From Dehalococcoidia bacterium (lineage in GTDB: Bacteria; Chloroflexota; Dehalococcoidia; Lucifugimonadales; VXLM01), in the NCBI GenBank assembly GCA_963665745.1, contig OY762443.1:611616-675615 (forward strand): a stretch of DNA of 64,000 nucleotides, in the 5' to 3' direction. Below, in pieces: positions 7,516-53,157 of the stretch; within the stretch, counting starts at the first letter, position 1, and the number at the start of each line of letters is the position of its first letter. The notes under the pieces are model-generated. The model worked only from the letters and a program-made list of their open reading frames with translations, was not told where the DNA came from and searched no databases. A program made the translations under genes and the position numbers.

Positions 7516-7833
7516 ATGGCGCTCACCCGTGACTTCAAGGAGACCGTTCAGGCCCGCGCCCAGCGCGACGCAGCGTTTCGAGAAGAACTGCTGAAGGAAG
7601 GCGTCGAATGCCTGCTTGCCGGAGATGTTGATGCGGGCAAGATCGTACTGCGTGACTACATAAACGCCACCATCGGTTTCGAGGAGCTTGGCTCCCTCAC
7701 GAACAAGCCGCCCAAGAGTCTGATGCGCATGTTCGGGCCGTCGGGCAACCCCCACGCCCGCAACCTTTTCGAGGTTATCAGCCGCATTCAGCAGCACGAA
7801 GGCATCCAACTCGAAGTTAAAGCCGTTCGATAA
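7516..7833 (+). CDS. antitoxin-type HTH DNA-binding protein (addiction-module antidote-like), with no cognate toxin adjacent
   Basis: MALTRDFKETVQARAQRDAAFREELL..LRDYINATIGFEELGSLTNKPPKSLMRMFGPSGNPHARNLFEVISRI. The GNP-x-x-x-x-L-x-x-V tail is typical of HigA/antidote-like proteins. An alternative start is ATG 7495. Confidence 0.6.
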   Translation: MALTRDFKETVQARAQRDAAFREELLKEGVECLLAGDVDAGKIVLRDYINATIGFEELGSLTNKPPKSLMRMFGPSGNPHARNLFEVISRIQQHEGIQLEVKAVR

Positions 7834-7928
7834 CCGCGCGATCGTCAACTGCATGACCGACGAGGAGACGGCATTCGTGTCGGAGCGGCTGCGGGAGGCG
7901 CTGGGGGTGGGCTCGTAATCTCTAACCC

Positions 7929-8084
7929 TTATTCGTCATAGGCTCGACAAACGCCATCGGCGTCGATTCTGCATATGTATCGATGGTCGAAATAATTGAA
8001 CAGGAAAAGGTTTATAGCCAGCAGAATAAGAAACACGACAAGAGAGATTATCCTGATTCTACGCTTTGAATCGCCCTGACTCAT
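7929..8084 (-). CDS. 51-aa single-pass membrane peptide, ATGA-coupled to the upstream MTase-HNH gene
   Basis: MSQGDSKRRIRIISLVVFLILLAINLFLFNYFDHRYICRIDADGVCRAYDE. Its ATG (8084-8082) overlaps the MTase-HNH TGA (8083-8081). The stretch is AT-rich. No homology was recognised. Confidence 0.4.
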   Translation of the reverse strand: MSQGDSKRRIRIISLVVFLILLAINLFLFNYFDHRYICRIDADGVCRAYDE

Positions 8085-9517
8085 TCCTTCAACTGCGCTA
8101 GCAGATACTCCTGCGGCCTGTCGCCCTTGATGCGGTTGCAGTGCGAGCAGAGGAGTTGGAGATTGTCCATGTGATCGGTGCCGCCGCGTGAGCGCGGGAT
8201 TATGTGGTCGACCTCCATGATGCGGTAGGGGAACTCGGTCTTGCAACCGTTGCAGCGGCCTTCCTGCTCACCGAAGAGGACGTGCTTGTTCTTGCGGTAG
8301 TGGATCGGCGCGTCGATGTCCGTGCGTTGCGGAATGTCGGTGCGGGCGGTGACGAGCCGGTCGTGGAAGAGGTCGCCCATGAAGTCGCGGAGGCGCAGGT
8401 TCACCAACTCGACGGCCTTCGGGGACAGGTCGATGCCGACCCACTGGCGGCCCAGCTTTTCGGCGGCTACGCAGGCGGTGGCGCACCCGGCGAAGGGGTC
8501 GAGCACCATGTCTCCGGGGTTGCTGGACGCTGCAATGATGCGTTCGAGCAGGGCAAGTGGCTTTTGCGTCGGGTAGCCTATGTGCTCCTTTGACCGATTA
8601 TTGACGTTTTGAACGTCGCCGATGAAGTCGGAGGCGGCTTCACCTTTGGAAGCTGCAAGATACCGCTTCAGGCGTGGGTATCCTGATTCTGTCCAGTCGA
8701 TCAACCCGGCATTTGAAAGGGCGTCCAAACGCGCGTGAACGCTCGTCATTGAGGTGTATCCCGGAATCAGGTTATCCTCAATCCACTGGGCATAGTTGCC
8801 GGTCTTGGGAACACTCCAACATCGCCCGCTTTGGCCAGGATCGTATCCCTGCCATGGCTGACCGGACTCTCCACTCGACAATCCCGGCCCGGTCAGGTTA
8901 TCCACCCTGTAGCGTCCCTTTTCGTCCGTATACCGGTAGTCCCGAGCTAGATAGGTCTCTCCAAGTGGCAGGTATTGCGTGTGCCATGTGGCTCCATCGA
9001 AGGCGTAGAACAGCAAACGGTCTGATACCCTCGCGAACCGCTTGGCGTCGCTGTGTGAGCTAGTCCTCTTCCAATTGATCTCATTACGGAAATTCTGCCC
9101 GCTGAACACAGCGTCCATCAGCACCTTCAGGTACGCTCCTGCGGTATCGTCGCAGTGCAGGTAGATACTTCCCGTGTCCTTCAAGACGCGGCGCATTTCC
9201 AGCAACCGGACGGCCATCATGCAGAGGTAGGACTGCATCCCCTTACCGTGCGTCATACCTGCGGTCTCGATGGTGCGGTAGATGGCGGGATGCTCGTCGG
9301 CTATGAGGCCCATCCAGGCCACGTCGAGGTCGCTGAGCGTCCACGTGTCCTTGAACGCCGCGCCCGCCGCCCTGCTGCCCACAGGGGCCTCGTAGTTCTT
9401 GTTGGAGTTGAAGGGCGGGTCGAGGTAGATGAGGTCCACCGAGTCGGAGTTGAGGCCCCGGAGGATGTGGAGGTTGTCGCCCGTCCATATCGTCTTGTCC
9501 ACGAAGTTCGCTGGCAT
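8081..9517 (-). CDS. beta-class N6A/N4C DNA methyltransferase fused to a C-terminal HNH endonuclease (copy 1)
   Basis: ORF 8081..11218 trimmed to ATG 9517 (MPANFVDKTIW). Motif IV is DPPF near the N-terminus, and the AdoMet motif I VLDPFAGCATACVAAEKLGRQWVGIDL lies late, which is the beta permutation. The C-terminal HNH-Zn motif reads CNGC..VDHIIPRSRGGTDHMDNLQLLCSHCNRIKG. Everything upstream of 9517 in the track ORF is antisense to the IS110 gene. Confidence 0.85.
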   Translation of the reverse strand: MPANFVDKTIWTGDNLHILRGLNSDSVDLIYLDPPFNSNKNYEAPVGSRAAGAAFKDTWTLSDLDVAWMGLIADEHPAIYRTIETAGMTHGKGMQSYLCMMAVRLLEMRRVLKDTGSIYLHCDDTAGAYLKVLMDAVFSGQNFRNEINWKRTSSHSDAKRFARVSDRLLFYAFDGATWHTQYLPLGETYLARDYRYTDEKGRYRVDNLTGPGLSSGESGQPWQGYDPGQSGRCWSVPKTGNYAQWIEDNLIPGYTSMTSVHARLDALSNAGLIDWTESGYPRLKRYLAASKGEAASDFIGDVQNVNNRSKEHIGYPTQKPLALLERIIAASSNPGDMVLDPFAGCATACVAAEKLGRQWVGIDLSPKAVELVNLRLRDFMGDLFHDRLVTARTDIPQRTDIDAPIHYRKNKHVLFGEQEGRCNGCKTEFPYRIMEVDHIIPRSRGGTDHMDNLQLLCSHCNRIKGDRPQEYLLAQLKE

Positions 9518-9523
9518 GAAGGC

Positions 9524-9552
9524 ATGATACCTGAAATGCGAACAGATGTCTA
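9524..9552 (-). promoter_or_regulatory. candidate sigma70-type promoter of MTase-HNH copy 1, possibly giving a leaderless mRNA
   Basis: On the minus strand: TAGACA (9552-9547), a 17-nt spacer, then TATCAT (9529-9524). The -10 box ends 6 nt before ATG 9517. Confidence 0.35.
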
Positions 9553-11117
9553 GGATGTGAGGTTCACTGCCGAGGGCGCGGATGGCGCAGAGTGGGAGTG
9601 GATGCAAGGATTTTAGATTCCTCACTTCGCTACGCTGCGTTCGGAATATCTCATGAGGGTTGCCACCCTCACCACCTGGAATGAAAATGGGTATGCCCCG
9701 CTTGGTGACGAGTTCGGTTGTCAATGGTGCCGCGAGCCCGGTTCGGAATATGACACTGGCGACCTGAAGGCACCACCTATTGTCGCCCCAGACGGCTGGG
9801 AGCACGTGTAGCAATGTCAGTTTTGGAGAGGTTGCCCGCCAATCGGGAGTCTTGTTGGAGGGTTGAGCATGGAAGTTGTACACGAGCGGAGTTGTGGATT
9901 GGACGTCCATAAGCGGACTGTCGTGGCGTGTGTCATCACGCCGGAGGGTAAACGGACTCGCAGATTCAAGACGATGACCAAGGACGTGTTGAGCCTGGCG
10001 GATTGGCTGGGTGAGGTAGGTGTGACCCACGTGGCGATGGAGAGCACGGGGGTATACTGGCAGCCTTTGTACAATCTGCTGGAGGACGATTTCGAGGTGT
10101 GGGTGGTGAACGCTGCCCATATCAAGACGGTCCCTGGTCGCAAGACGGACATGAAGGACGCCGAGTGGATAGCCGACCTTCTGCGGCACGGACTGTTGCG
10201 ACCGAGCTTTGTCCCTGACCGTCCTCAGCGGGAGTTGCGAGAGTTGACTCGCCATCGCCGACAGTTGATTAGGCAGCGTGCGCAGGTGGTCAACCGCATT
10301 CAGAAGGTGTTGGAAGGGGGCAACATCAAGTTGAGTTCTGTGGCAACTGATGTCGTGGGTGCTTCGGGACGCGCAATGTTGAGGGCTATGATCGCTGGGG
10401 AAGACGATCCCGAGACGCTGGCGTCCATGGCCAGGGGGCGACTTCGTGACAAGCGCTTGCTGTTGGTCGATGCACTGGAAGGGTCGATGGGTTCCCACCA
10501 GCGGATGATGTTGGACAGCTATCTGCGACATCTCGACTTTTTGGAGCGTGAGATCGAGCGGATGAGTGAGGAGGTGGAGGATCGGACGCGCCCTTTTGAG
10601 GAGGTGATCGAGAGGATCGACGAGATTCCAGGAATGGGACGTCGAGGTGCCGAGCAAGTGGTGGCGGAGATCGGTACGGACATGAATCGGTTCCCTACGT
10701 CGCAGCACTTGGCATCGTGGGCGGGGATGTGTCCCGGCAATAACGAGAGCGCGGGCAAACGGATCGGCGGTCGCACCAGGCGCGCCAATCCGTGGCTGAA
10801 GTCGACGCTGGTGGAGGCAGCTTGGGCCTCTGTGAAGACTCGCGACACGTACCTGTCGGCCCAATACCGCCGCATAGCGGCTCGCAGGGGCAAAAAGCGG
10901 GCGATCATCGCCGTGGCTCACTCGATCCTGGTCATCATCTACCATATGCTCAGAGACGGCACTCGACACAGGGACCTTGGTGGGCAATACTTCGAAGAGC
11001 GCAACCACCAGGCAATAGTGCGCTATACCGTCCGACGGCTCAATCGGCTGGGATACGACGTGACTCTCGCAGCTGCCTGACAGGTCTATTTTCGTAGCAA
11101 TGACAGTAGTGGGGCTG
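9553..11117 (+). mobile_element. IS110-family insertion sequence (maximal bounds; exact termini unresolved)
   Basis: Contains the IS110 transposase CDS. It occupies the divergent intergenic region between the MTase-HNH and DUF1800 genes and is bounded by candidate native promoters at 9524-9552 and 11118-11147. No terminal inverted repeats were seen, as expected for IS110. Confidence 0.7.
9869..11080 (+). CDS. IS110-family DEDD transposase/recombinase
   Basis: MEVVHERSCGLDVHKRTVVACV..VAMESTGVYWQPLYNLL..VVNAAHIK..KTDMKDAEWIA is the DEDD N-domain. IPGMGRRGAEQVVAEIG..F....HLASWAGMCPGNNESAGKR is the Transposase_20 domain. ATG 9869 follows GGAGGG. Confidence 0.95.
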   Translation: MEVVHERSCGLDVHKRTVVACVITPEGKRTRRFKTMTKDVLSLADWLGEVGVTHVAMESTGVYWQPLYNLLEDDFEVWVVNAAHIKTVPGRKTDMKDAEWIADLLRHGLLRPSFVPDRPQRELRELTRHRRQLIRQRAQVVNRIQKVLEGGNIKLSSVATDVVGASGRAMLRAMIAGEDDPETLASMARGRLRDKRLLLVDALEGSMGSHQRMMLDSYLRHLDFLEREIERMSEEVEDRTRPFEEVIERIDEIPGMGRRGAEQVVAEIGTDMNRFPTSQHLASWAGMCPGNNESAGKRIGGRTRRANPWLKSTLVEAAWASVKTRDTYLSAQYRRIAARRGKKRAIIAVAHSILVIIYHMLRDGTRHRDLGGQYFEERNHQAIVRYTVRRLNRLGYDVTLAAA

Positions 11118-49919: not shown

Positions 49920-51293
49920 CTACCAAGCCAAGTCCCCTGGCGTCACATTCATCATCCTTCCGGCCTTTTGCACTTCCATCCGGCGGCGTCCCAGCTTCAG
50001 CAACTCTTCTCCTCCAGAACCCCTTAGTGCATCTCCAGGTATGCCCAAAGCCTGCAAGATTGCCACAGCGATTTGCAATGGTCCGGGAGTCACGTAGGGA
50101 TTTAGTGTGCCGGGTGGTTCTTTGGTCTCCGGCGCTATCACAAACGTATCAAGCGAAGTTCCGTCGGGAGTGATGATCTCGTCATCCTGAACTATTGGAA
50201 GCCCAAAAGCCGAGATGTGAGAAAGATAGTTTGGTAAATCAAGGAACGGAATCGTGCGCCAGACGTTTTCAATGTAAGCCTTTATATAGAACGGACCTCT
50301 CACATTTGCATGATCGACCACCATACGGTGACGCTTAATGATCCCTTCACAGGCGTCTAGCATCATATTAAGGTCTAGAATCTTGACCGATTCAAGACCT
50401 CCATTATTGAACATGGAAATGAACTCCTGGCCCGTAGAATAAATATTCCACACCTCATCGTATTCATTTGTCGACAATACTGGTATGGGAAGGGTTACAA
50501 ACGAATGACATTGACGAGAGAATTCCCATGTAAGTACACGATTATAAGGATTATTACCTGCCGTCTGTCTCGCTACGTAACCATCATGCTTGGAGAAAAT
50601 GTTGTCGAAAGGGACTGAGTTTTCTTTCATGACTTCACTGAAGTCAGTCAATTTCCCATCGTACCAATGGCCCATAACTTCATAGGGATCCGATATTATG
50701 CTGAAATGAATAAAAGGCTGATCTTCCTCGCCTTTTGAGACCGTTGGACTCTTCAGTATGCGATCCTCTAATCGCCGACGGGCCTGCTCGCCGCGCCTAG
50801 ACAAAATGTCAAAGGTAACTCGATCTGTTATTGGCCTAGGATCAGAGGAGTCTCCAATACGCACGTATATGCGGCCATCGTTATGAACATAGGGAGTATC
50901 AGGACCTTGAGGTATTTCGGCTGCGACAATTGAGCGCCCTTGCTGTAGGCCTATCGATTCAATTGGCCCTTCGAATACTCGGGTGATGTAGAACACGTGG
51001 GGATGTAGAAGGTCTTTCGCTGCGTTTCTCAAGGCTTCAAGAACTGAGGGCACATCAGAATTTGCAATGCCTGGAAAGCACTCTGCAACATTCTGTTTGG
51101 AACCACTCTTGATTCCAAGGAAATACAATCCGCCGTATTGATTAGCAAAGGAAGATAAGCTTTTTGCCAGAGCACGTGGCTTGATGATTTCGGACTTATA
51201 TTCAACGTACCAGCCTTCATAAACGTCTCTAAGTTCCGTCAAATCAGTTGGAGAAAGATCTACAAGGTTCTCGTCGAAAGGTGTATGTCTCAT
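49920..51293 (-). CDS. AlbA_2 / Schlafen-like (divergent AAA) DNA-binding domain protein with an unassigned ~300-aa C-terminal region
   Basis: N-terminus: EGWYVEYKSEI..ALAKSLSSFANQYGGLYFLGIKSG....IVAAEIPQGPDTPYVHNDGRIYVRIGDSS. The gene is clearly AT-richer than its neighbours by eye. Confidence 0.7.
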   Translation of the reverse strand: MRHTPFDENLVDLSPTDLTELRDVYEGWYVEYKSEIIKPRALAKSLSSFANQYGGLYFLGIKSGSKQNVAECFPGIANSDVPSVLEALRNAAKDLLHPHVFYITRVFEGPIESIGLQQGRSIVAAEIPQGPDTPYVHNDGRIYVRIGDSSDPRPITDRVTFDILSRRGEQARRRLEDRILKSPTVSKGEEDQPFIHFSIISDPYEVMGHWYDGKLTDFSEVMKENSVPFDNIFSKHDGYVARQTAGNNPYNRVLTWEFSRQCHSFVTLPIPVLSTNEYDEVWNIYSTGQEFISMFNNGGLESVKILDLNMMLDACEGIIKRHRMVVDHANVRGPFYIKAYIENVWRTIPFLDLPNYLSHISAFGLPIVQDDEIITPDGTSLDTFVIAPETKEPPGTLNPYVTPGPLQIAVAILQALGIPGDALRGSGGEELLKLGRRRMEVQKAGRMMNVTPGDLAW

Positions 51294-51792: not shown

Positions 51793-53157
51793 ATGGTGGC
51801 ACCGAACTTTGTCGATAAGACGATATGGACGGGGGATAACCTCGATATTCTCCGGGGGATGAACTCCGAGACGGTAGACCTCATCTACTTGGACCCGCCG
51901 TTCAATTCGAACCGCGACTACGCGGCTCCGGTCGGAAGCAAGGCGGCGGGCGCGGCCTTCAAAGACACGTGGACGCTCAGCGACCTCGACGTGGCGTGGA
52001 TGGGCCTCATCGCCGATGAGCATCCGGCGATCTATCGCACCATTGAGGCCGCCGGCCTCACGCACGGCAGGGGGATGCAGTCCTATCTCTGCATGATGGC
52101 CGTCCGGTTGCTGGAAATGCGCCGCGTCTTGAAGGACACCGGAAGCATCTACCTTCACTGTGATCCGACGGCTTCTCATTATCTTAAATTACTCATGGAT
52201 GCGGTGTTTGGAGCAACGCAATTCCAAAACGAAATCACTTGGCAACGGACAACGGCGCATAACGATTCGGTTCGTTACGGTAGGAACTCCGACACGATAC
52301 TGTTTTACTCGAATCGCGATCGTTGGACGTGGAATATTCAGTACCAGCCCCACGACGATTCTTATAAGGCCAGATTTCGGCATCGTGATCCCGACGGTAG
52401 AGCGTGGGCCGATGACAACCTCACCGCCAAAGGGCTATCGGGCGGAGGTTACGAATATGAATATAAGGGTGTGACGTCACTGTGGCGTGTGCCATTGAAG
52501 AGAATGCGAGAATTGGATGACGAGGGGAGGCTTCATTTCACAAGTCGAGGCGGCATTAGGGTGAAGAGATACCTCGACGAGGTTAAGGGCAGGCCACTAC
52601 AAGCAGTTTGGGCTGACATCTACGCTATCAACTCCCAAGCGAAGGAACGGATAGGCTACCCCACGCAAAAGCCCCTCGCCCTCCTTGAACGCATCATCGC
52701 CGCGTCCAGCAACCCCGGCGACACGGTGCTCGACCCGTTCTGTGGATGTGCTACGGCGTGCATAGCGGCTGACAAATTGGGCAGGCAATGGGTAGGAATC
52801 GACCTATCTTCGAAGGCCGTGGAACTGGTCAATATGCGCCTTCGGGAGTATATGGGAGACCTATTCCACGATCGGCTTGTTACGGCTCGGACGGATATTC
52901 CCAAGCGGACGGATATTGACGCTCCAATTCACTACCGGAAGAACAAGCACGTCTTGTTCGGGCAGCAGGAAGGCCGTTGCGCGGGCTGTCGCATGGACTT
53001 CCCGTTCAAGGCGTTCGAGGTAGACCACGTGATACCGCGCTCCAAAGGCGGGACGGATCACATCGACAATCTCCAGTTGCTCTGCTCGCACTGCAATCGC
53101 ATCAAGGGGAACCGCGACCAGGCCTATCTCATGGCGCAGTTGTCGGATATGTCGTAG
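51793..53157 (+). CDS. beta-class N6A/N4C DNA methyltransferase fused to a C-terminal HNH endonuclease (copy 2)
   Basis: ORF 51748..53157 trimmed to ATG 51793 (MVAPNFVDKTIW). DPPF, VLDPFCGCATACIAADKLGRQWVGIDL, and the HNH motif CAGC..VDHVIPRSKGGTDHIDNLQLLCSHCNRIKG are present. It is a paralogue of 8081-9517. Confidence 0.9.
   Translation: MVAPNFVDKTIWTGDNLDILRGMNSETVDLIYLDPPFNSNRDYAAPVGSKAAGAAFKDTWTLSDLDVAWMGLIADEHPAIYRTIEAAGLTHGRGMQSYLCMMAVRLLEMRRVLKDTGSIYLHCDPTASHYLKLLMDAVFGATQFQNEITWQRTTAHNDSVRYGRNSDTILFYSNRDRWTWNIQYQPHDDSYKARFRHRDPDGRAWADDNLTAKGLSGGGYEYEYKGVTSLWRVPLKRMRELDDEGRLHFTSRGGIRVKRYLDEVKGRPLQAVWADIYAINSQAKERIGYPTQKPLALLERIIAASSNPGDTVLDPFCGCATACIAADKLGRQWVGIDLSSKAVELVNMRLREYMGDLFHDRLVTARTDIPKRTDIDAPIHYRKNKHVLFGQQEGRCAGCRMDFPFKAFEVDHVIPRSKGGTDHIDNLQLLCSHCNRIKGNRDQAYLMAQLSDMS

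Follow-up and report, generated by a model that had tools for sequence, protein, structure and literature searches.

A candidate single-chain restriction-modification-like enzyme with a variable 3' slot and an overlapping membrane micro-protein gene in a Dehalococcoidia genome

We analysed a 64,000-nucleotide stretch of a Dehalococcoidia bacterium genome (contig OY762443.1, positions 611,616 to 675,615; hereafter the window, to which all positions below refer unless another locus is named). Two minus-strand genes overlap there. The upstream gene (8081-9517, TGA stop at 8081-8083) encodes a 478-amino-acid protein with DNA methyltransferase and HNH nuclease domains (Pfam, PADLOC), here called the enzyme. 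The downstream gene (7929-8084) translates to a 51-amino-acid peptide, MSQGDSKRRIRIISLVVFLILLAINLFLFNYFDHRYICRIDADGVCRAYDE, predicted to be a single-pass membrane micro-protein. Minus-strand positions 8081-8084 read ATGA, in which the TGA of the enzyme overlaps the ATG of the peptide.

The translation of the enzyme has DPPF at residues 33-36, VLDPFAGCATA at 338-348, GIDL at 361-364 and CNGC..DH..N..CSHCN at 422-461. Pfam matched N6_N4_Mtase to residues 27-372 (E 3e-40) and HNH to residues 422-467 (E 1e-14) in this one open reading frame (ORF), and HNH_5 and HNH_4 also match the C-terminus. The motif order is that of the beta class, with DPPF first, the S-adenosylmethionine (AdoMet) motif late and about 160 residues between them. 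The chain divides, always on the minus strand, into a conserved N-terminal methyltransferase lobe with motif IV, DPPF (residues 1-140, 9098-9517; mean top-residue frequency 0.84, DPPF invariant), a variable target-recognition domain (TRD; about residues 141-300, 8618-9097), where conservation falls to 0.64, alleles are swapped and GC content is low, an AdoMet-binding lobe recognised by motif I, DPFAGCATA, and by alignment conservation (residues 301-400, 8318-8617), and a C-terminal HNH (beta-beta-alpha-metal) nuclease domain with a CxxC..CxxC zinc site, supported by Pfam and by residue conservation (residues 401-478, 8084-8317).

PADLOC labelled the enzyme MTase_II (E 3e-58), a type II/III-like methyltransferase, and its sequence matches in the PDB were CcrM, M.MboIIA, RsrI and type III Mod subunits (including 6k0w and 4zcf). 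The HNH part matched the HNH domains of IscB and Cas9 in NCBIfam and the PDB. In the AlphaFold model the methylase and central domain have a predicted local distance difference test (pLDDT) score of 80-95, with the TRD above 90, and Foldseek placed this model closest to EcoP15I Mod (E 6.5e-15) and the H. pylori Mod 6k0w, near M.MboIIA and CcrM. The first-pass annotation, made from the letters of the window, had described a complete beta-class amino-methyltransferase and a C-terminal zinc-ribbon HNH in a single chain; motifs, Pfam and family-wide conservation agree with this description.

A search of 5.8 billion proteins detected at least 8000 homologues of the enzyme. The best 120 of them are about 480 amino acids long, have 64-97% identity and contain both domains in every case. 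The HNH set (catalytic DH, structural N, metal-binding N and two CxxC zinc pairs) is complete in the enzyme, and its residues C422, C425, D437, H438, N452, C457, C460 and N461 show at least 98% conservation among 121 homologues, with no variation at all in a subset of 45 sequences. The conservation of DPPF and motif I is equally strong in both sets, suggesting that both activities are under selection. Degeneration of the HNH part, which the first-pass annotation had named among the results that would refute its proposal, is contradicted by this conservation of the catalytic residues.

The methylase-HNH fusion is a very large family and no rarity. About six HNH-bearing paralogues of the enzyme are encoded in the window's own 3.1-Mb genome, one of them in the window itself (51793-53157, plus strand, about 454 amino acids, about 66-71% identical, with another central TRD). 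We collected 79 related loci from one-genome-per-species contigs, and nearly all were from Dehalococcoidia/Chloroflexota metagenome-assembled genomes (MAGs), several of them sponge bins, with one alphaproteobacterial MAG. In an even sample of the phylum, a full-length relative was detected in 11 of the 401 genomes, which belong to 6 of the 218 genera, with 54-72% identity, and so few carriers at such identity suggest horizontal spread of the family. The family is abundant, patchy and multi-copy in sponge-type Dehalococcoidia. Phage and plasmid collections contained methylase-only relatives at about 40% identity and essentially no HNH fusions, the exception being one fragment beside an insertion sequence (IS) element on an Oscillatoria plasmid. 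We rejected an orphan methyltransferase of the CcrM kind as the identity of the enzyme: the conserved fused HNH, the patchy distribution over genera, the multiple copies and the swapped TRD argue otherwise.

Two parts of these loci are variable. Where loci have both flanks in common (85-95% DNA identity), two segments cannot be aligned, namely the central TRD and 0.3-1.9 kb starting from the stop codon of the enzyme gene. Sequence comparison detected one variable TRD segment per enzyme, exchanged among alleles, including alleles of the same locus that are otherwise 90-96% identical. Seven orthologous loci with both flanks alike have a different 0.3-1.9 kb cassette after the stop codon in each, and at the 79 related loci DNA homology stops right at the enzyme stop codon and is followed by a different low-GC gene. 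Among 602 pairs of loci, DNA homology ended on the 3' side between -1 and +4 nucleotides from the end of the stop codon (5th-95th percentiles) and homology ran more than 50 nucleotides past the stop in only 10 pairs; the upstream flank was common to 39, and only pairs with common flanks are fully informative on the boundary of this 3' slot. The GC content is 0.545 in the TRD, compared with 0.615 in the flanks (p 4e-13), and 0.537 in the first 400 nucleotides of the slot, compared with 0.614-0.620 in the far flanks (p 3e-12).

The slot cargo includes AAA_21/AAA_15 ATPases, TIR_2, SocA_Panacea, Uma2, DUF3644, DUF2806 and DUF6159 proteins, a pentapeptide-repeat membrane protein, an integrase, a second methylase-HNH, a 75-amino-acid zinc-ribbon protein and a type II restriction-modification (RM) pair led by a gamma-class methyltransferase. 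No Pfam family was assigned to 12 of 20 cargo proteins. The slot of the locus L001 (loci other than the window are given as L numbers), whose enzyme is 96% identical to that of the window, contains an Eco57I/TaqI_C-type methylase and a 260-amino-acid protein, presumably a type II RM pair. The start codons of several cargo genes overlap the enzyme stop codon as ATGA or GTGA.

A small zinc-ribbon ORF of 73-75 amino acids (MPRRKKERGRPLE...), with CxxC..CxxC, overlaps the enzyme gene by 13 nucleotides behind two near-identical methylase-HNH copies in the window's own genome (L098 and L099; C1:1455859-1457075 and C1:2415389-2416604) and in L053 from another genome. Judged by its overlap, it would be another small translationally coupled cargo, recurring at unlinked places. 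Further downstream, about 0.4-1.2 kb past the stop codon, the point where homology resumes in L013, L040, L048, L052 and L072 is precisely the ribosome-binding site of a following small gene. The products there are MSFRPQHDKP... and then MKAVAEIQQAILEL..., an addiction-module-like antitoxin. The region as a whole is a mosaic at these five loci, with its joints at gene borders.

In the window, the slot begins with the peptide gene. Its 51 codons have 42% GC, compared with about 60% in the surroundings, and the 17-residue Kyte-Doolittle maximum of the peptide is 3.08, predicting one transmembrane helix. A basic N-terminus is followed by a 21-residue hydrophobic helix and a 19-residue tail in which C38 and C46 are invariant; the RRIRI stretch, most of the helix and the tail residues IC..D.DG.CR are also among the invariant positions. 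The ATGA, the GC content and the hydropathy maximum bear out the first-pass description of an AT-rich ORF that overlaps the enzyme stop codon and encodes a basic single-pass membrane peptide.

We detected the peptide ORF on 16 contigs, in 12 distinct nucleotide versions encoding 10 distinct peptides. A reading in which these 51 codons are a chance frame in an AT-rich spacer or a conserved non-coding element, behind an orphan methylase whose HNH is decaying, would fit an ORF that is short, AT-rich and without a family. Against it, all 12 DNA versions have exactly 51 codons, and the ATGA overlap was found on 16 of 16 contigs. The variable columns per codon position number 16/13/29 (chi-square p 0.024), third positions varying most, the pairwise ratio of non-synonymous to synonymous substitution rates (dN/dS) is 0.18-0.33, and the contrast of synonymous and non-synonymous change between the window and L092 is significant (Fisher p 4e-5). 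No alternative frame was open throughout in the four versions first compared, and the HNH catalytic residues are conserved as described above. The conservation data largely refute this reading, which we consider very improbable, and the substitution pattern marks the 51 codons as a real gene on which purifying selection acts.

The peptide is restricted in its distribution. The 5.8-billion-protein search detected three 51-amino-acid clusters, 78-82% identical to it, with further members added from the cluster listing, and an exhaustive profile search of 1.84 billion representative proteins gave a single true peptide cluster. A protein search of 401 genomes detected it in its own genome only, the 400 other genomes of the class being without it. 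The tblastn search of the 79 related loci had no match, and a degenerate DNA pattern gave 0 matches in the Joint Genome Institute (JGI) metagenomes. There was no Pfam match at E <0.1 (the best was Sigma_reg_N, E 0.11) and none in NCBIfam or PADLOC. The second hit of the profile search, a 704-amino-acid protein, P0127, was rejected as a homologue. It has about ten Cys-rich repeats ending ..FNADLKICEIDENGIC, and the repeat ends match the peptide tail F.D...IC.ID.DG.C; only the short C..D.DG.C tail aligns, ten times over, and the E-value reflects the repeats. Chance similarity in a short Cys-loop motif probably explains this match. The P0127 repeats seem to resemble eukaryotic chitin-binding (peritrophin-A-like) units.

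The peptide gene follows a full or assembly-fragmented methylase-HNH gene on nine contigs, among them L105-L107, low-coverage long-read contigs whose fragmented enzymes may be assembly errors. An identical peptide follows a 478-amino-acid enzyme in L104 and a 455-amino-acid enzyme in L103, which have two different TRDs, with only about 30% identity in the central domain. On seven further contigs, from several sponge metagenomes, the peptide follows an enzyme stump, in which roughly the first 38-43 residues run on in frame into the last 17-20. Three such alleles, of 56, 63 and 65 amino acids, were found, and all three end at the ATGA. The 65- and 63-residue alleles differ by +1 and -1 indels 22 nucleotides apart, with scrambled residues between them and the frame regained. 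Two contigs with the 56-residue allele differ by five stump changes, all non-synonymous, and by one change in the peptide, although these counts are small. The in-frame stumps and the five non-synonymous changes suggest that translation into the ATGA and the peptide have been kept and the stump protein has not; together with the two TRDs, the stumps indicate that the peptide is independent of that enzyme copy.

Enzymes of the same clade also occur without the peptide, in L001, in L002 and L108 (both 91% amino acid identity) and in L028, which has a different TRD. In L002 just the first dozen or so bases of the peptide ORF are left (ATGAGaCAGGGCG), and in L028 an unrelated 70-amino-acid membrane ORF is in its place. 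The first-pass annotation had proposed looking for a small transmembrane ORF kept downstream of homologous enzymes, and the peptide ORF was retained neither at these four loci nor at the 79 related ones. In L109, the enzyme is 97% identical to that of the window and has the same surroundings. A 1-nucleotide insertion 26 nucleotides before the stop codon puts this enzyme into the peptide frame and gives a 529-amino-acid fusion. The fusion, found on a single contig, may be genuine or an assembly indel; if it is real, its peptide part would be a C-terminal membrane anchor according to the predicted topology.

These occurrences bear on two different functions for the peptide. In the first, it would cooperate with the enzyme, either as a tether or as a regulatory subunit, and would hold the methylase-HNH at the cell membrane, the point of entry of foreign DNA; the two proteins would then be a true unit. 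The ATGA kept on 16 of 16 contigs, including across the TRD swap, is in favour of such a partner, as is the L109 fusion, where the basic KRRIR on the enzyme side fits a C-terminal tail anchor; small tail-anchored or single-pass cargo was also detected in L028, L031/L038, L033/L036, L040, L048 and L072. However, the seven stump contigs retain just 56-65 residues of the enzyme with the peptide, the enzyme is without the peptide in the four close relatives and in all other family members, and the fusion may be the assembly indel of one contig. We therefore consider this partnership unlikely.

The stumps may also be read in another way, as short in-frame sequences that merely deliver ribosomes to the ATGA. 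The peptide would then be a Hok/holin-type membrane toxin or an abortive-infection effector gated by upstream translation, an addiction or suicide module on an RM gene. The type I toxin-like size, the single helix, the basic N-terminus and the Cys-containing external tail are consistent with this, the dependence on an overlapping ORF recalls mok-hok, and neighbouring slots of relatives contain suicide effectors (TIR, AAA ATPases, SIR2_2). No Pfam match to Hok_Gef or another toxin family was found even at E up to 10, and neither an antitoxin nor an antisense RNA was recognised. A gene that has been under long-term purifying selection and is kept where the enzyme is gone is more likely to be beneficial than to be a bare toxin, and we consider a toxin or suicide effector quite unlikely.

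We consider it fairly probable that the enzyme is single-chain and RM-like, and that its gene has a 3' cargo slot, occupied in the window by a coupled membrane micro-protein. This reading rests on the conservation of both active sites, on TRD shuffling in the absence of a separate nuclease gene and on the multi-copy, patchy, low-GC-flanked distribution. A Mod-like beta-class N6A/N4C DNA methyltransferase and a zinc-bound HNH would act in one chain, with the central TRD setting the target sequence and directing both methylation and the HNH cut or nick, and the HNH would nick or cut DNA that is without the methyl mark of the enzyme. The family diversifies through TRD exchange, and a recombination-prone cargo slot opens at the stop codon, with a different, usually lower-GC gene in nearly every lineage. 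The peptide would be transcribed from the enzyme promoter, translated by termination-reinitiation at the ATGA and inserted with its N-terminus inside and its C-terminus outside. The comparisons themselves document the domains, the residue conservation, the coding selection on the peptide, the linkage, the boundary of the slot, the TRD swaps and the deletion stumps; methylation, cleavage, coupling, topology and any role in defence we infer from the sequences.

The peptide is lineage-restricted and replaceable and outlives loss of the enzyme, suggesting an accessory cargo and not a third core component; the enzyme family does without the peptide, and the peptide does without this enzyme copy. 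It may act at the membrane, as an effector or an anchor, or be a hitch-hiker with no relation to the enzyme. The first-pass annotation had proposed a compact RM, selfish or defence cassette with the peptide as its third part. The complete motifs of both domains in one chain, the genuine ORF and the ATGA on 16 of 16 contigs bear this out in part, but a fixed three-part system is contradicted by the relatives without the peptide and by its persistence after enzyme loss.

Several observations weigh against the single-chain RM reading with its coupled cargo. The HNH part of the AlphaFold model is unreliable (pLDDT <50), and no nuclease geometry can be inferred from the model. The HNH could nick DNA for mobility or repair instead. 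In distant pairs, coding constraint by itself would account for part of the break of homology at the enzyme stop. At about 19 of 81 loci the slot is occupied by a membrane protein, which is near the normal share in genomes and no clear excess over background, and we claim no enrichment. Of the 16 peptide occurrences, 15 are at the locus between GHL10-like and SelA-like genes or derived from it, and the linkage of peptide and enzyme may be inherited from one ancestral locus and have no functional cause.

A broader reading is a modular defence platform, so far undescribed, of which the Mod-like methylase-HNH would be the constant half and the slot genes the interchangeable partners. The peptide would physically tether the enzyme, or paralogues of it, at the membrane or signal to them there. 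The in-frame fusion in L109 and the selection that appears to keep ribosomes running into the ATGA after enzyme deletion point in this direction, and we regard such a platform as a speculative and rather doubtful extension of the single-chain RM reading.

Combined RM enzymes are known as Type IIC/IIG (MmeI and Eco57I, with BtgZI as a methylase-first exception), in which a PD-(D/E)XK nuclease is joined to a gamma-class (NPPY) methylase, or to an alpha-class one in BtgZI (PMC4081073). As in these enzymes, methyltransferase and nuclease are in one polypeptide here and specificity changes by module swapping; the one variable TRD segment may act for methylation and cleavage alike. As in BtgZI, the methylase is N-terminal and the nuclease C-terminal. 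The difference is the combination of a beta-class Mod-like methylase (DPPF) with HNH. A combined beta-class-HNH enzyme is not listed in RM reviews, and a literature search detected no paper naming a methyltransferase-HNH fusion.

The best fold and sequence matches of the enzyme are Type III Mod subunits (EcoP15I Mod 4zcf, H. pylori Mod 6k0w, Mbo45V Mod 7dsu), with which it has in common the beta-class order, the central TRD between motif IV and motif I and TRD shuffling between conserved ends. Unlike these, it has a fused HNH and no translocase, and no Res gene (superfamily 2 helicase and PD-(D/E)XK) is adjacent to it in the window or in the relatives examined. The HNH part is similar to the nucleases KpnI, MnlI, Hpy99I and McrA and to the HNH domains of Cas9 and IscB in its beta-beta-alpha-metal core, DH..N..N residues and CxxC..CxxC zinc site, but in those proteins the HNH is joined to other recognition modules and not to a complete DNA methyltransferase.

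Variable, often suicide-type, strain-specific genes are linked to other RM loci, such as PrrC inside EcoprrI and the rlo genes inside Campylobacter type I loci. The slot is similar in attaching variable genes to an RM locus; it differs in starting at the stop codon of a single-chain enzyme and, in the window, in holding a 51-amino-acid membrane peptide without a known family. In mok-hok, the hok toxin depends on an overlapping upstream ORF. The likeness is a single-pass peptide of about 50 amino acids whose start overlaps the end of an upstream frame; the difference is that the peptide described here has no sequence or profile match to hok and no antisense RNA was identified.

Provided that the enzyme both methylates and cuts DNA, single-chain restriction enzymes would gain a new architectural class, in which a Mod-like methylase of the beta class carries HNH at its C-terminus. 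New specificities, and possibly nicking enzymes, could then be drawn from its thousands of members and many natural TRD variants. The stop-codon-anchored slot is where sponge-symbiont genomes put new candidate defence genes, mostly without a family. The peptide is a clean case of a micro-protein with coding selection that was missed by annotation, and the in-frame stumps with compensating indels would be unusually direct evidence of selection on translational coupling itself.

The enzyme gene is preceded by a sigma-70-like promoter candidate (9524-9552, minus strand; TAGACA-17 nucleotides-TATCAT, 10 of 12 consensus positions in the scan), which ends 6 nucleotides from the enzyme ATG. If it functions as predicted, this spacing would make the enzyme mRNA leaderless or nearly so. 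A similar arrangement, TAGACA..TAGGAT, is present upstream of the stump alleles in L091 and L093. The -35 box adjoins an IS110-family insertion (9553-11090, plus strand; transposase gene 9863-11080, Pfam DEDD_Tnp_IS110 and Transposase_20), which the syntenic L001 and L109 lack.

On the other side, convergent with the peptide gene, lies a 3'-end remnant of a 375-amino-acid SelA-like gene (7830-7918, plus strand; ..NCMTDEETAFVSERLREALGVGS*), which aligns to the intact end of this gene in L002, L092 and L091. Most peptide occurrences lie between GHL10-like and SelA-like genes. In the window and L109, the cassette is instead between DUF1800/DUF1501 genes and an amidohydrolase gene, with a 77-bp SelA-end remnant, which shows that enzyme, peptide and fragment moved together from the GHL10-SelA locus. 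The neighbours of the enzyme in the window are the IS110 element, DUF1800, DUF1501, a 105-amino-acid ORF and the amidohydrolase, the flank genes being called by ORF scans in GC-rich DNA.

The SelA-like 3' end (77-79 bp) is duplicated in L002 (5714-5792 and 6568-6646 of that locus) around a BrnTA insertion, and this repeat suggests that the gene end is restored when DNA inserts here. We rejected an integron-type attC cassette: its candidate repeat of 77-79 bp is this SelA-like gene end, and no flanking inverted repeats were found. No inverted repeats or transposon ends were found around the enzyme gene.

The 105-amino-acid ORF (MALTRDFKETVQARAQRD...; 7516-7833, plus strand) is convergent with the cassette and has an antitoxin-like or DNA-binding-like appearance; it had no match in Pfam, NCBIfam or PADLOC. 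A BrnT/BrnA pair occupies the equivalent place in L001, L002 and L092. In L105, L106 and L107, a 382-amino-acid SIR2_2 gene is located in the stead of BrnA, convergent just past the peptide gene (about 4291-5439 of L105, minus strand).

The second methylase-HNH paralogue of the window is followed by no co-directional cargo. Just upstream of it, in a patch of 47-50% GC, is a divergent 457-amino-acid Schlafen/AlbA_2 gene (49920-51293, minus strand), likely a defence-type neighbour.

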